DNA of 64,000 bases from Bacteroidota bacterium (GCA_013390605.1 JACAUB010000001.1:5054250-5118249), one strand, 5' to 3'. Positions 4,028 to 45,178 are shown, numbered from the stretch's first letter. The notes: a model not told the origin generated them from the letters alone. Numbers and translations are program-made.

Positions 4028-5768
4028 AATGATTTGTGCTGCGTTGAGAATTGAAAATTTGAACATATTCCGGACAAGTATCCATCAGTGTTTCATGAGT
4101 TCCCTTTGCCAAAATCTCGCCTTCTTCTAATAAAATAATTTGACCGTAATTCATGACCGATGCAATCTTTTGGGTTACAGAGAGTAAAGTTATGCCGGGA
4201 TAATTTCGAGCTACATTATCCAGAATTTTCTCTTCAGTCTGGCTGTCAACCCGGGCAGTAAAATCGTCGAGTAATAGAATTTTTGGATTAAGTGCCAGCG
4301 CTCTTGCTAACATGATACGTTGTTTTTGTCCACCTGATAAACTTGTGCCACGTTCGCTCACAATCGTGTCCATTCCTTCTGGCAGCGCATCGATAAAATC
4401 GTGTAGCTCGGCTGTTTCAATTGCTTTAGCAAGTGATTCACCAGTTACTTTCTCCTTAAATGCAATGTTTTCGCGAAGGCTCATGTTGAACATAATACTG
4501 TCTTGAAATACAAATCCGATCTGATCTTGAAATGTTTCTTTATTATAATCGTTGATGTTGATACCGTCAAACAGGATAGAGCCATTTGATGGTTGAATCA
4601 GTCCGGTGAGTAAATAGAGTAGCTGTGTTTTTCCGGCTGCTGTTGGTCCAATCACGGCTGTTCTGGTTCCGGGTTTCAGAATTAGTGAAACGTTTTTTAG
4701 GGCCGGTTTCTCGCCATAAAATACCGAAATATTTTGCATCTCAATGTCGCCAAGTAACGGGGTGCTCACTATGCCAGTATCGCGAGTTTCTTTAGCATCC
4801 AGAACAGCACAAATCCGGCCATATGAAACCGAAGCCTGTACCACGAAATTGCTGATGAATCCAATGATGATAATCGGAAAGATAAGTAATCCCAAATAAG
4901 AATTGAATGCTGCAAAATCTCCCAACGACATCGTGCCAGAAATTACGTAATGTCCGCCCAACGCCAGGATGGTAAGCGATGCCATATTGCTTACGAACAC
5001 GACTATCGGAATTAGCGTTGCAAAAAGTTTGAGAATGGACATTCCCAAATCTTTAGCTTGTGTATTGGCATCCATGAATTTGTTGTATTCAAGTATTTGC
5101 GAGTTCAAAACACGAACCAATGCTGCACCCATTATGCTTTCGTTGATGACTTTATTGAGCCAGTCAATTACTTCACGACTTTTCTTGAACAATACTCGCA
5201 CTTTACGGAACACAAAGAAAAATGCTAAACTGATAATTGGAATAATGGCAAGTACAGATAATGCCAGTTTCCAGTTAATCGAAAATAAAAGAATACTTGC
5301 ACCAATAATAATAAACACTGATGACGCAAGTGACACTACTGCCATCGATACAAATAATTTTACAGAATCAATATCAGAAGTGAGGTTGGTAAGTAATTTC
5401 GAGGGGTTTGATTGCTGAATAAACGCATAACTCTGGCGCGAAATCTTATCAGCAAGCTTTGTCCGCAAGTCGCGTGCAACTCTTTCCGAGGCGTAGGTCT
5501 GCAGAATACCCTGCAAAAAAGTAAATACGAAAATAATGAATGCAGCAATCAGGAACTCAATGATGATTTTTTGATATAAAAAAATCCCTTTCGAGAAATC
5601 ATCAATACCGTGTGAAATAAGTTTCGGAATTACTAAATTCGTCGCATTACTCAATAGTGAAAAACTGATCAGGCTGAAAATCATTAGCCTGTATGGCTTT
5701 AGAACTGCAAATATATTTGGTTTATTCGGTTTCCCTCCTGGTGTTTGTTCTTTATCTTTAATTGCCAT
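4017..5768 (-). CDS. ABC exporter, fused TMD-NBD subunit (degenerate catalytic residues)
   Basis: GPTAAGKT, LSGGQKQR, LLLDD (Glu replaced by Asp), VTQK (His replaced by Gln); heterodimer partner of the downstream gene. Confidence 0.9.
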   Translation of the reverse strand: MAIKDKEQTPGGKPNKPNIFAVLKPYRLMIFSLISFSLLSNATNLVIPKLISHGIDDFSKGIFLYQKIIIEFLIAAFIIFVFTFLQGILQTYASERVARDLRTKLADKISRQSYAFIQQSNPSKLLTNLTSDIDSVKLFVSMAVVSLASSVFIIIGASILLFSINWKLALSVLAIIPIISLAFFFVFRKVRVLFKKSREVIDWLNKVINESIMGAALVRVLNSQILEYNKFMDANTQAKDLGMSILKLFATLIPIVVFVSNMASLTILALGGHYVISGTMSLGDFAAFNSYLGLLIFPIIIIGFISNFVVQASVSYGRICAVLDAKETRDTGIVSTPLLGDIEMQNISVFYGEKPALKNVSLILKPGTRTAVIGPTAAGKTQLLYLLTGLIQPSNGSILFDGININDYNKETFQDQIGFVFQDSIMFNMSLRENIAFKEKVTGESLAKAIETAELHDFIDALPEGMDTIVSERGTSLSGGQKQRIMLARALALNPKILLLDDFTARVDSQTEEKILDNVARNYPGITLLSVTQKIASVMNYGQIILLEEGEILAKGTHETLMDTCPEYVQIFNSQRSTNHYEL

Positions 5769-5799
5769 TTCAATATATTCTATTTAAAATTTAATGGAG

Positions 5800-5807
5800 C
5801 AAAGTTA
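5800..5807 (-). promoter_or_regulatory. Bacteroidota -7 promoter element for the ABC operon
   Basis: TAACTTTG on the minus strand matches TAnnTTTG, ~30 nt upstream of the ATG. Confidence 0.55.
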
Positions 5808-6060
5808 AAACAACCCGTAATCAATTGTTGATAAACTTTAACATAACACGATTATTAGCAAAGTGGTTCAACAACATCTGAAATTCACAAATTTATTAAA
5901 GCTATCTTTTTCGAATAACATGCATAGCCATCTGTTATTCAATAAATCATAAATGCGCTCATTCTTTTTTAGTGTGTGTTTAATCAACATTGTGTTGATA
6001 GCTATGAAGATAAATTCTCATTATACAATTACGAAGTTAATCGGTTAAAATATACTGTCT

Positions 6061-6270
6061 ACTCTTCAAATATTTATTGATAATGAGGGTATAATGATCC
6101 ATCGATCCTTAATGAGTTTCCTTTATTTGCACCGTGCTTCCGCTATGACTCCCACTAATTATTGGAGCCATGGTGGAAGCACGCTGGATCTACGCTGGAC
6201 CCATGCCGGACTCAATGGTGGTTATGCTTCTGATATAGAATTATATAGCCTAAGTTAAATGAGGGAAAAA
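6061..6270. repeat. intergenic hairpin + phased 11-bp repeat element, copy A
   Basis: Ungapped match to 44801-45010 (155/210 identical by hand count). 20-bp stem 6133-6152/6164-6183; GGA-initiated units at 6164, 6175, 6186, 6197, 6208. Confidence 0.9.
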
Positions 6271-6686
6271 GAGTGTGGTAAATTGATTATGAATATGTTA
6301 CTTTTCATTATCTTAAACAATGCTATTCTATAAGCAATAATTTCACTTCGGAGTCGGAACATTATATGAATAACTATTTGTAAAATTTCTCAGATTATTG
6401 TGATGCCAGATATTCCGGATTGTATGACGATCTTTCATCCGTAAATAATTTTTAGATTGAGGTATGATGGAACTCGCATATTAAATTTACTACAGTGTCT
6501 ATGTTTGTAAAAACATACTCGTTTGATTACTAAGTTTATCAAACGCAAATGTTATTTCAGAAGGTTTTTTTAGATCTACTAAATAAGGCGATCCATAATC
6601 TTTAATGGCTGCTGATTTTAAACCTGCTGATAAAACGCGTAGATAAAAGCGGAATTTAATAGATAGTATAATGAATAATGTATTAT

Positions 6687-6717
6687 TAAGGGCACGATTT
6701 GATTTCTCGTGCCCTTG
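6687..6717. terminator. hairpin downstream of M16 peptidase (terminator or REP-like)
   Basis: AAGGGCACGA-N9-TCGTGCCCTT perfect 10-bp stem, ~18 nt past the stop codon. Confidence 0.55.
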
Positions 6718-6734
6718 TTTTAAATTGTGCTTTG

Positions 6735-9557
6735 TTATTTTGTTACTGGTTTTCCGTCTTTATCTAACAATATCGGATCACCTAAACCAAGCTCTTTCAA
6801 CTTTTCAAATTGAGTAGCCTTATCGCCAACAATCAAGTAAATTAATTTATCTGGATGAATTAATTTCTGTGAAAGTTTAGCATGTTCTTCCGGTGTCATT
6901 TTTTGAACAATAGCTTCACGCTTTTTAATGTAATCAAATGGGAAGTTATAAGTTACAATTGGTCCAAGCATCTCGTTTAGCTGTTGCAATGTTTCGAATT
7001 TCCCTGAATTACTCTTTAGCAAAGTACTCTTTACTTGATCAAGATCTTCTTTCGCAATTCCTTCAGTATACTTTTTAATCTCATCACGGATTATCTGCGT
7101 AGTCTCGAATGTTGAATTCGACTGTACTGCAGTACTTGCAAGAAATTGACCTACATAAGCAGCGCCAGTAAATCCGGAACGAGCACCATAGGTAAATGAT
7201 TTTTTCTCACGTAAAATCATATTTAAGATTCCATTGAAGTCGCCACCTAATTTGTAGTTTATCACAACAGCTTTATAATAATCCGGATCTATAAAGCTAG
7301 GTCCTGAATGTCCTACAAATACTTGTGATTGTTTTGCATTTGGTACATCTACAAAATAAATTCCCGGTTTAGCAGAAGTAATACTTGAAACCTCTGGGAT
7401 CTTAACATCCTTTGTTTTCCAATCTTTTAATCCATTAAATAGAGAAACTGCTTTCTCCTGGGTTATATCTCCCACTATGCTAATCTTTGCTACTGAAGGC
7501 GCAAAATAGTGATCATAATAGTTTTTAAGATCAGTAAGCTTTATTTTTTCAACTGATTTTATTGTTCCGGCAGCTTCGTTAAATAGAATGTTATTGGTTC
7601 CATAAACCAATTTACTGAATACACTTTGCGCAATTGAGGTCGGAGAAGTTTCAGTTCTTTTTAACCCTTCTATTGTTTGTCTTTTTGCAAGTGTAAATTC
7701 TTTTTCATCCCAGCGCGGTTCATACAACATCTCTTTAGCCAGTGCAAATGTTTCATCTAATTTGCTTGAAAGACAACTTCCGGTTATTAAAATAGACTCT
7801 TTACCCCCCGAAATATTTATATTCGCACCTAAATCCTGCATTGCTTCATCCAGCTCAACAGGCGTTTTTGACTTCGTGCCTTGATTCATTAATCGTGCTG
7901 TTAATGAGCCAACGCCAATCAAATCAGGATTGTCAAGAAGCATTCCGCCTTTCAGAATAATTGAGAATTCCACCAGTGGTATTTGACTTTTTTTAATTCC
8001 AAAAACAGGAATTCCGTTGGCTGTTTTATCTTTCCAGATTTTTGGAAGTGTAACAACTGGATCAGGACCTTTAACGGGCTCTTTTGTTCTGTCAATCTTT
8101 GAAGGTATGGGTTCGTACTTAGAAGCTACGGTTTCTTTTTTCTTCGTTCCTTGCTTGTCTATAGACTCCTCTTGCACCACCCACAACTTTGAATTTGATG
8201 CTGCTAAATCCGCTTTACCCTTAGGGACAATACTGGTGATCAGATAATTTTGATTCTTGATATATTTGTTATAAACTCTCCAGATATCATCTTTTGTCAC
8301 ACTCATCCTATTGTTGAAATCAGTTGTCATGAAATCTGGCGATCCGTTAAAAATATTGTAATCTCCTAACAACCTTGCTTTGTTTAAAACACTTCCACTC
8401 TGTCTGTAGAAACCATATTCAATACCTGCTTTTTGTCTTTCTACATCTTTATCTGTAAATCCATCTTTTTCAAATCGTTGAAAAGCTTCTTTTACGGTAA
8501 CTTCTACATCGCTTAATTTAATGTTTGGTAATGCAGTAACTGAAATGTCGAATGTTCCGGTAATCTCTGAGCTGCTGTGACGTGCTGAAACTGAAAGGGC
8601 AAGCTTTTTCTCTTCAACAATTACCTTATATAGAGGGGAGTTATTTCCTCTCGCAAAAATACGTCCGAAGAAATCAAGGGCATAAGCATCTTTATTATAA
8701 TCTTCAACAGTAGGGAACTCCATTGTAAGTCTGGGTGCATTCGCAAGATTATCTTCACAATATGCTCTTACTGTTTCATTCAGCGTAACTCCCATTTTAG
8801 GTAATGGTTGAAGTGCCGGACCGGATTTTATTTCGGCAAAATATTTTTCAATCCACTTCTTTGTTTGAGCTACATCAATATCACCGGCTACAATTAATGT
8901 AGCATTACTCGGTGCGTAATACTTTGCATGAAAGTCTAATACATCCTGAAGTGAGGCGGCTGCAAGATCTTCCAAATCGCCAATAACAGTATGTCCGTAT
9001 GGATGGGTTGCCGGATACATTAGTTTAGTCGATATATATTGACTTTGCGAATAAGGTCTGTTATCTCCCTGACGTTTTTCATTCTGAACGACATTCTGTT
9101 GGGTGACAAATGTTTCCTGATTTACTTTGCTTAAAAGGAATCCCATTCTGTCTGATTCCATCCATAATGCCATTTCAACAGCATTTTTGGGAACTACTTC
9201 AAAATAATTTGTTCGATCAGTGTTTGTGGAACCATTTACACTCGTTGCACCAGCAGTCTGAAGTTTCTTGAACCATTGTCCTTGTGGAATATCTTGCGAT
9301 TCGTTGAACCTAAGATGTTCGAACAGGTGGGCAAATCCTGTTTTGCCTTGAACCTCTCTTGCTGAACCAACATGATAAACTACATACACTGCTGCTATTG
9401 GGTTCGATTTATCAACATGCAGAATTACATTCATTCCGTTGGATAGTACATATTTTTCGTAAGGGATTTTAAATTCCTTGTTCTTCTCCACGCCAAAAAG
9501 TGCGATGTTAAAGCAAAGTGATAGCGTAATTACCATAAATGACAGTTTGTTTTTCAT
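6735..9557 (-). CDS. M16 family zinc peptidase (pitrilysin/PqqL-like), secreted
   Basis: Signal peptide; inverted zinc motif HLFEH; NGSTNTDRTNYFE; duplicated M16 halves; 940 aa. Confidence 0.93.
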   Translation of the reverse strand: MKNKLSFMVITLSLCFNIALFGVEKNKEFKIPYEKYVLSNGMNVILHVDKSNPIAAVYVVYHVGSAREVQGKTGFAHLFEHLRFNESQDIPQGQWFKKLQTAGATSVNGSTNTDRTNYFEVVPKNAVEMALWMESDRMGFLLSKVNQETFVTQQNVVQNEKRQGDNRPYSQSQYISTKLMYPATHPYGHTVIGDLEDLAAASLQDVLDFHAKYYAPSNATLIVAGDIDVAQTKKWIEKYFAEIKSGPALQPLPKMGVTLNETVRAYCEDNLANAPRLTMEFPTVEDYNKDAYALDFFGRIFARGNNSPLYKVIVEEKKLALSVSARHSSSEITGTFDISVTALPNIKLSDVEVTVKEAFQRFEKDGFTDKDVERQKAGIEYGFYRQSGSVLNKARLLGDYNIFNGSPDFMTTDFNNRMSVTKDDIWRVYNKYIKNQNYLITSIVPKGKADLAASNSKLWVVQEESIDKQGTKKKETVASKYEPIPSKIDRTKEPVKGPDPVVTLPKIWKDKTANGIPVFGIKKSQIPLVEFSIILKGGMLLDNPDLIGVGSLTARLMNQGTKSKTPVELDEAMQDLGANINISGGKESILITGSCLSSKLDETFALAKEMLYEPRWDEKEFTLAKRQTIEGLKRTETSPTSIAQSVFSKLVYGTNNILFNEAAGTIKSVEKIKLTDLKNYYDHYFAPSVAKISIVGDITQEKAVSLFNGLKDWKTKDVKIPEVSSITSAKPGIYFVDVPNAKQSQVFVGHSGPSFIDPDYYKAVVINYKLGGDFNGILNMILREKKSFTYGARSGFTGAAYVGQFLASTAVQSNSTFETTQIIRDEIKKYTEGIAKEDLDQVKSTLLKSNSGKFETLQQLNEMLGPIVTYNFPFDYIKKREAIVQKMTPEEHAKLSQKLIHPDKLIYLIVGDKATQFEKLKELGLGDPILLDKDGKPVTK

Positions 9558-44500: not shown

Positions 44501-44800
44501 ACAAAAGTGATTTTAAACATATTGAAAATTAGCAAAATGAATAATAAATAACACAATTGGGTGATATTATTATAATTTTTAACATGAATATATTCTGAAA
44601 ATAGCACTTAATATTGATACGAAAACAGGCTTTTATGCTACTAATTCATTTTGAAATCATATTTATATCTTTGCTTTAATGTAGACGCTTTTATTTTTAG
44701 CAATTTGGGTATCTAAAGCAAGTCACAGCTCTATACCACAAAATAAATAACCTGTATAAAATTAGGAAGCGATAAATCAAAATAAGAAATAACACCTTTT

Positions 44801-45010
44801 ATTCTCCAAATAATCATTGATAATGGAGGTATAATGATGCTTCAATCCCCAAAGTATTCTATTTGCTTACTCCATGATTTCACCATGCCTCCCATTATTT
44901 GCAGGAGTCATGGCGGAAGGATGCCGGATCCACGCCGGACTCACACCGGACCCAATGGTAGTTATATATCTGATATAGAATTGTATAACCTGTGTTAAAA
45001 TAGGGAAATC
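44801..45010. repeat. intergenic hairpin + phased 11-bp repeat element, copy B
   Basis: Collinear with 6061-6270 at offset 38740; GGA units at 44904, 44915, 44926, 44937, 44948; more degenerate stem. Confidence 0.9.
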
Positions 45011-45178
45011 GAGGAAGGAGAGATTGTAATCTTTTGATTATTAATATAATATTGTTTGAAGTAATGTGACTTATATAAAAAACGGAAGCTTTAATAATTA
45101 AACGTTTTTTGTTGTAAGCAACGGCTTTAACTTTTTTATCTTTGATCATAAATGCAAACTTTTTAATACGCTGAGTCA

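Follow-up and report, generated by a model that had tools for sequence, protein, structure and literature searches.

A family of interspersed, non-coding foldback repeats was identified in the genome of a Bacteroidales bacterium (G000; 5.63-Mb assembly, 98% complete), two copies of which (A and B) lie in the 64,000-nucleotide stretch of DNA analysed here (C1:5054250-5118249; the window). The stem of the repeat carries a TCC/GGA base-pair triplet every 11 positions, arranged as five inverted units, a loop and five direct units. The family can be counted among the palindromic intergenic repeats of bacteria, a broad and known class within which its architecture is unusual. The reading that we prefer is of a genus-restricted foldback repeat that acts like the ERIC, BOX or REPIN elements, and we consider the chances of this being correct to be about evenly balanced. 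The host was placed in Bacteroidales, and the best relatives of the glutamate-kinase-like ORF in the window are Bacteroidales MAGs (64% identity).

Copies A (6061-6270) and B (44801-45010) align without gaps, with 155 of 210 columns identical (74%); this count agrees exactly with that of a first-pass annotation of the same DNA, and the sequence and coordinates that it gave for both loci were confirmed. The family is detected by nhmmer at E 1e-17 to 1e-41 in a first pass and at 1e-56 to 1e-67 with a profile, and thus the match between the two window loci is far above chance. The 210-bp extent proposed in the annotation was too narrow. In copy A, the conserved block spans 6043-6268 on the + strand (-165 to +60 from an anchor at 6208), as delimited by the information-content profile and covered by nhmmer and covariance-model matches, and is followed by a weakly conserved tail (6269-6343, + strand; 0.4-0.6 bits), with pairwise BLAST extents reaching +100 to +135. 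The block contains a quasi-palindromic core (6080-6236, + strand) centred on a dyad at 6158, which was located from the dyad register, the pair table and an RNA fold. Within this core, a left arm (6080-6152) of five inverted, degenerate 11-nt units is separated by an 11-nt loop (6153-6163) from a right arm (6164-6236), all on the + strand; the two inverted units reported previously are the two best-kept of the five, and the structure is a 5+5 quasi-palindrome. The sequence shows five direct 11-nt units (GGA N8) at 6164-6218 (+ strand), exactly in phase, with starts at 6164, 6175, 6186, 6197 and 6208. Tandem Repeats Finder reports a period of 11 nt, free of indels (0%), for each copy (copy A, 6163-6203, score 33; copy B, 44923-44954, score 43), in keeping with the exact 11-bp phase that had been described.

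The register of copy B is that of copy A shifted by 38,740 bases: the conserved block lies at 44783-45008 (+ strand; anchor 44948, dyad 44898, palindrome 44820-44976, direct units 44904-44958), and the weakly conserved tail, from information content and pairwise BLAST extents, at 45009-45083 (+ strand). The TGATA boxes that had been placed almost symmetrically about the dyad are present in copy A, one at 6078-6085, about -80 from position 6158, and the other at 6231-6239, about +73 from it. Both loci had also been described as intergenic, and our own crude ORF caller (ATG starts only, at least 100 codons) places each of them between ORFs.

For the family as a whole, copies were anchored on the fifth GGA unit (window position 6208 in copy A), and the anchor offset is constant in 20 of the 21 full copies that have the motif, the exception carrying an 11-nt tandem duplication. 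Across 20 ungapped anchored copies, information content goes up at -165 and down after +60, beyond which a weakly conserved stretch extends to about +135. The conserved block of ~225 bp holds a quasi-palindrome of ~155 nt, and the repeat overall measures ~300 bp. The best dyad register is -50.0 in 20/20 copies, with runner-up registers offset by 5.5 (equivalent to one unit), and in the per-position pair table the arms are complementary between k = 3 and about 78. At k = 8, 19, 30, 41, and 52, a T-A pair is present in 19-20 of 20 copies, and C-G pairs adjoin these T-A pairs. The two arms are conserved to different degrees (1.55 bits/position for the right arm vs. 1.11 for the left). For units 1-5 in 38 copies, GGA is found in 31, 17, 33, 38, and 38 copies in the right arm, and TCC in 36, 18, 17, 4, and 8 copies in the left arm; in unit 2, GAA (16 copies) goes together with TTC (17 copies). 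Conservation in the family peaks at direct units 3-5.

Folded as RNA, positions 6073-6243 of copy A form one long hairpin on either strand, with energies of -56.4 kcal/mol (z -3.97) and -51.2 kcal/mol (z -3.76) for the two strands. Pairing was then scored over 38 sequences, from which two metagenome copies with 1-nt insertions (L231 and L236) were omitted to keep columns fixed. Under the dyad structure of 53 pairs, which was derived from those same sequences and is therefore favoured over slid controls, 78.3% of cells are paired, compared with 33-45% when the partner is slid. Changes on both sides of a pair are seen in 20 pairs and 75 cells, vs. 9-14 pairs and 17-29 cells with a slid partner; shuffled alignments, a control that is inflated by the relatedness of the copies, give 47 +/- 6.4 both-side-changed cells, and 0 of 500 reach 75. 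Most of this covariation comes from the central helix of ~20 bp and its 11-nt loop (6133-6183 in copy A, + strand), where pairing extends to 85.5% of cells and both sides have changed in 12 of 26 pairs (38 sequences); in the outer helices, just 64-77% of cells are paired. A test on 31 sequences had a similar outcome. RNAalifold applied to 31 copies does not return the long hairpin, giving two short helices in another register, and on ungapped stacks it gives a weak consensus structure, also in another register.

The aligned copies thus support the view that pairing has been kept by compensatory changes. A structured RNA was among the options raised in the first-pass annotation; these changes back its hairpin, whether in an RNA or a DNA form. 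Templated correction of quasi-palindromes can also create compensatory changes in long inverted repeats, so the changes need not mean selection.

The geometry of the repeat is strict. MAFFT places only four indels across 31 aligned copies, one of +11, one of -11 and two of 1 nt, and the tail of the same copies, unlike the near-gapless core, does have gaps. The earlier suggestion that spacing is under constraint is therefore borne out by the rarity of indels that break the phase, two of the four being of exactly 11 nt. Median identity among copies is 66%. In four pairs of copies at the same locus, overall identity is 64-82% with 0 gap columns; it is 75-89% in the right arm and 51-80% in the left. 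Length, phase and pairing persist as the sequence changes.

The exact 11-bp phase, the conserved GGA core, the gain and loss of whole units and the near-invariance of units 3-5 in primary sequence would all also suit an assembly site on duplex DNA, at which a regulator, a nucleoid protein or a transposition protein would occupy ten 11-bp sites (five inverted, five direct) cooperatively from one face of the helix. The repeat unit of the parC locus is likewise 11 bp long, a spacing near one helical turn. The numbers recall parC of plasmid R1, which has two sets of 5-fold iterons bound by ParR (PMC2241845). parC is one plasmid locus beside parM and parR, whereas the present element comprises 20 dispersed chromosomal copies without such genes nearby, and its two sets of units, unlike those of parC, are inverted and complementary. 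Duplex binding does not predict mirror changes between the arms, yet these occur in 20 of 53 pairs; moreover, the left-arm units are degenerate (down to 4/38 and 8/38 for TCC in units 4 and 5), the scan of 37 neighbouring ORFs described below includes no partition, replication or recombinase gene, and there is no match on plasmids or phages. We regard a duplex-DNA assembly site as quite improbable.

A profile search of G000 with nhmmer gives 23 loci, namely 20 distinct full copies, two redundant copies at contig ends, and one degenerate copy. One of the redundant copies occupies the first 242 bases of its contig and is an exact inverted duplicate, flank included, of the copy near 10.2 kb; the other, on a contig of 1.2 kb, duplicates the copy near 1.748 Mb. 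The degenerate copy (G000:C1:1342059-1342215; nhmmer E 5e-9) has a 22-column gap, equal to two units, in its direct-unit array (MAFFT). The copies are single and scattered over 5.2 Mb of G000, and a third copy is found 14 kb past the end of the window. With its flank, the inverted duplicate at the start of the large contig takes up the whole of C1:1-306 and matches exactly the copy near 10.2 kb and its non-repeat flank within C1:10085-10465. This could stem from misassembly at the end of the contig, or else the genome may really carry an inverted duplication on either side of about 10 kb.

Among congeners, G001 has 13 copies in the stretches that were fetched, and BLAST finds no copy in G002 or G003, nor in 37 genomes of other families. 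A covariance model finds none in 149 genomes from other genera of the order (18 candidates per genome scored, under strict filters). An exact-pattern scan of the genomes of 185,579 species yields three stretches, one of which is a true copy (in a Bacteroidales MAG), and a metagenome scan yields 13 contigs, 11 of them carrying copies, from source relatives 79-91% identical to G000. The family is, as far as found, restricted to one genus. A plasmid or phage origin was dropped, there being no pattern match in viral contigs and no match on plasmids or phages.

The copies fall into two subfamilies. Subfamily 2 consists of six G000 copies that share a longer common homology (-320 to +171), with terminal inverted repeats at three of them and parts of these repeats at two more. 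The three copies, at C1:559066, 1748274, and 4645749, have inverted repeats of 21-26 bp of a type identical to that of an ISL3 element outside the window (C1:4997246-4998792; 1.5 kb), the second ORF of which encodes a DDE_Tnp_ISL3 transposase (E 4e-52). The reading frame of this ISL3 element is broken into two ORFs (131 and 272 codons), and part of its right end reads as N. The possibility that the core is carried by the ISL3 element itself was ruled out, as nhmmer gives no match in six ISL3 loci at E <= 10. ISL3 matches are strong in G000 and G001, weaker in G002, and not found in G003. A unit of ~490 bp of this MITE type is present at six loci in metagenome relatives, none of which (0/6) holds a G000 copy, and the terminal repeats are visible in metagenome locus L231. 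Likewise, none of the seven loci of MITE-type copies in G001, which were assigned by their shared upstream block, is common to G000. Subfamily 2 has evidently been captured between ISL3 ends and moves as a MITE of ~490 bp.

By our criteria, flanking inverted repeats of at least 11 bp are missing from copies A and B and from another 14 of the 20, so that the terminal repeats expected of a MITE are found in subfamily 2 alone and not in the window copies. The mobile element considered in the first-pass annotation is therefore a sound description of one subfamily, with its ISL3-type terminal repeats and its differing loci in relatives, and lacks support for copies A and B, which have no outer terminal repeats. 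The question of an IS end divides in the same manner: the core itself is no IS end, and one subfamily sits between IS ends. That the window contains no recombinase or transposase holds for the ISL3 transposase, none of the matches listed lying inside the window.

Presence and absence at otherwise matching loci, as expected of MITEs, is observed. The C1:728851 locus, of subfamily 1, measures 13 bp in G001 vs. 397 bp in G000, the insert being longer than the conserved unit and without a duplication; the copy A locus measures 27 bp in G002 vs. 803 bp in G000; and in G001 the element is absent from the loci of both A and B. Target-site duplication is not visible at the three MITE-type copies, in the C1:728851 filled/empty pair or in L231, and no copy shows a clean boundary of insertion; the flanks are too diverged for exact junctions. 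Some copies of subfamily 1 are shared between species. Two G001 copies fall within alignments of about 3 kb (81% and 84% identity) that also take in G000 copies, and two of three subfamily 1 copies from metagenomes are at G000 loci; in L236, the left flank is no longer alignable and the element still is.

Two further loci in G001 were noted. The copy at L036 (G001:C257) 1464-1715 is at the position of the G000 copy C1:2293951-2294206 (near 2.294 Mb), to which it is 69% identical, and by eye is much closer to the G000 copy C1:614853-615098 (near 0.615 Mb). This mismatch hints at conversion between copies or at repeated insertion at one site, and the closeness to another paralogue complicates a reading of vertical inheritance. 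At L152 (G001:C169) 1512-1750, there is a copy where G000:C1:239327-239801 has 474 bp without a detectable copy, and this G000 stretch could be a decayed copy or a replacement.

The variable presence of copies between congeners, the existence of one clearly MITE-type subfamily, the avoidance of divergent promoter regions (2/20 copies), as shown by selfish insertions, and the faster divergence of same-locus copies (64-82%) than of their mostly coding flanks (81-90%) would agree with a decaying selfish repeat of no host function, in which the palindrome is kept by arm-to-arm templated correction and copies persist by chance. We judge this unlikely: at a median identity of 66% the copies are nearly indel-free in the core, with some indels consisting of whole units, the right arm is still well conserved in same-locus pairs, and correction between arms leaves the asymmetry of the arms unexplained.

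All 20 copies are intergenic, located between convergent (7), co-directional (11) or divergent (2) ORF pairs, and at least one flanking ORF points toward the element in 18 of 20 copies. A Pfam scan of 37 of the 40 flanking ORFs identified, among other families, SusD, histidine kinases, PurL, lipases, an ECF sigma factor, GH92, redoxin, a Crp-type regulator and Fic; no transposase, recombinase, integrase, partition or replication protein is among the 37. The three flanking ORFs outside the scan are window ORFs read as an ABC transporter, an M16 peptidase and a glutamate kinase. An identification as integron attC sites was set aside, given that the copies are single over 5.2 Mb and that no integrase is among the scanned neighbours. 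In L002 (G000:C1:4239135-4242331), the copy near 4.2407 Mb and an adjacent Crp-family regulator gene occupy, at 1375-2570, one stretch of 1,195 bp relative to G002, which has 11 bp at this site; related genes are found elsewhere in G001 and G002.

The intergenic position of every copy beside unrelated genes, the occurrence of some copies at the same loci in related species, the covariation that backs the hairpin and the asymmetric conservation, with a well-kept stretch of about 45 nt, would be compatible with paralogous sRNA genes, in which each copy specifies its own structured RNA of ~170-300 nt and the 3' arm (GCCGGA-N5 repeated) serves as a seed or a protein platform. In addition, Bacteroides has multicopy sRNA families, such as the 14-member FopS (PMC11697453). 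FopS resembles the present family as a multicopy non-coding family of the same order with a conserved sequence block, and differs in that its RNAs are about 65-70 nt long with canonical promoters (PMC11697453), whereas the present element is 225-300 bp long, lacks such a promoter motif and has no evident sequence relation to FopS.

TAnnTTTG is the promoter consensus of Bacteroidetes, and in the 20 copies neither strand has the motif at a conserved position, in a search limited to this consensus. Sigma-70-like sites are not above the level of shuffles (4 vs. 3.1 +/- 1.8), and copy A has 0 terminator-like sites. G-U-type pairs are balanced between strands (157 on the + strand and 140 on the - strand; 41 vs. 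40 in the central helix), and G-U is not in excess over A-C on either strand. There is no strand bias relative to flanking ORFs, 11 upstream ORFs reading in with the sense orientation and 14 downstream ORFs in antisense, and no clear bias relative to replication, with 12 copies co-oriented vs. 8 not (origin near 4.55 Mb and terminus near 1.9 Mb, from cumulative skew). Perfect 12-mers of the conserved arm number just four outside the elements genome-wide, which is not above a rough chance estimate. All of these points argue against sRNA genes. A CsrB-like sponge for CsrA was rejected, CsrA being missing from 4/4 congeners. An RNA gene in each copy is, on balance, a doubtful reading that retains some credibility. 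A search of the whole window against Rfam gives 0 matches at the gathering score and none inside the element at E <= 1; the sole match at E <= 1 is to a snoRNA model at 5966-6028 (E 0.5) and is unrelated. Thus, the element does not correspond to an Rfam family, a possibility left open by the first-pass annotation.

Coding capacity was also considered. Copies A and B both contain a 54-codon ORF of the same length and frame (6094-6258 and 44834-44998, both on the + strand), which might be taken for a small protein gene, and this frame is open in 9 of 20 copies. In the other 11, it has in-frame stops or no start, and among the nine open-frame copies the differences at codon positions 1, 2, and 3 (604, 551, and 617) show no relief at the third position; the conservation of the peptide merely tracks the nucleotide conservation of the repeat units. 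The ORFs were judged to be non-genes, a small protein being extremely improbable and rejected as a candidate, and a decayed coding repeat, another of the alternatives put forward earlier, is contradicted by the same lack of third-position relief.

The closest general parallels are with known interspersed repeats. ERIC (also IRU) and BOX are intergenic, non-coding imperfect palindromes of 100-200 bp, which are interspersed in the genomes of enterobacteria and pneumococci, respectively, and form long hairpins. They occur in tens of copies, in either orientation and often at gene ends, and the internal units of BOX are modular and variable in number. The present element resembles both in being an interspersed, non-coding, intergenic, long-hairpin palindrome in tens of copies. 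It is unlike them in its stem of 5+5 phased 11-nt units with a TCC/GGA triplet, and in its confinement, as far as found, to one Bacteroidales genus, and no relation in sequence to either would be expected.

REPINs are non-autonomous elements mobilised by RAYT, in which two inverted halves form a hairpin whose stem is kept by compensatory change (PMC3116915, PMC3337134). The present element shares with REPINs the hairpin of two inverted halves, the compensatory change, the lack of autonomy and long persistence in a lineage; unlike REPINs, it is longer and is built of tandem units. A REPIN with its RAYT was rejected as an identification, there being 0 matches to PF01797 (Y1_Tnp) among seven candidates in G000, while control genomes responded. 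The nearest described case within the order is BrickBuilt of Porphyromonas gingivalis, a Bacteroidales MITE with an internal 23-nt tandem repeat and 19 copies that are always intergenic (PMC4596501). The present element also has an internal tandem repeat, and its units form a foldback, unlike a simple tandem array; no target duplication was visible beside its diverged flanks. Compared with IS-derived MITEs, subfamily 2 is bounded by terminal repeats of an ISL3 element of the same genome, and subfamily 1 lacks outer repeats. A narrow search of the literature on such repeats in Bacteroidetes found no element of this design.

If the element does act like ERIC, BOX or REPIN repeats, it would function as a hairpin of nucleic acid, irrespective of its orientation. 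The likeliest site of action would be in read-through transcripts at gene 3' ends, an RNA stage that is wholly conjectural, or in single-stranded or cruciform DNA. As a spacing of 11 positions is about one A-form turn, the repeated triplets would be expected on one face of the helix, where they would suit binding by a repeated or multimeric protein, and the better conserved right arm would hold the sequence-specific part. The higher conservation of the right arm is not predicted by a plain orientation-free hairpin, and stands against our preferred reading. The hairpin looks orientation-free, yet something appears to read the right-arm sequence, and the two conflict.

A bolder version of the same idea, which we put forward tentatively and think more probably wrong than right, is that the hairpin of ~150 nt, as RNA or as folded single-stranded DNA, is a ruler-like platform for an oligomeric protein, with five TCC/GGA triplets placed one A-form turn apart and internal loops between them; this platform would be kept by the host, and its capture in an ISL3-type MITE would be secondary. 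To our knowledge, Hfq, ProQ and CsrA are absent from the phylum, and a platform of this kind, if true, would represent a new kind of RNA- or DNA-protein system there.

Interspersed palindromic repeats are common, and their functions are mostly unsettled. The present family is an unusually clean case, by virtue of a strict geometry (dyad, 11-nt phase, and gain or loss of whole units) that is maintained despite drift to a median identity of 66%, and of the contrast between a mobile ISL3-MITE subfamily and a subfamily that is partly at the same loci across species. Should a partner protein or a defined transcript be found, the family would show how a helical-phase repeat is read, as well as how a transposon picks up a host element. 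Should nothing bind or transcribe it, it would be one more genus-specific repeat, of use mainly for strain typing and as a cause of assembly breaks.

Several minor observations were made in the vicinity of the window copies and in a congener. A low-depth contig from a peat metagenome joins 6117 to 6192, omitting 74 bases (6118-6191) roughly centred on the dyad of copy A, and may come from a relative in which the hairpin is deleted or from the assembler having cut across the palindrome; contigs of four DNA runs aligned to 5300-7200 are mostly the product of cross-mapping between paralogues. A second dispersed repeat of ~80-110 bp, unrelated to the element, lies 90 bp past the tail of copy A, at 6433-6512, with weaker similarity to about 6540. 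It has 56 nhmmer matches in the genome (strands not de-duplicated) and is also present in all three congeners, and contig depth over it is ~20x that of its flanks in one sequencing run. In the congener G003, where the family is missing, another palindrome of 11-nt units, of GGGTAGGGAAA type and followed by a GATATA-like box, occurs in about three copies, at L163 (G003:C173) 460-546, L247 (G003:C278) 1076-1168 and L183 (G003:C577) 11-134. One of these copies is about 270 bp from two tandem units of ~0.9 kb, each of which contains a 253-codon Y1_Tnp ORF between 23-bp inverted repeats.
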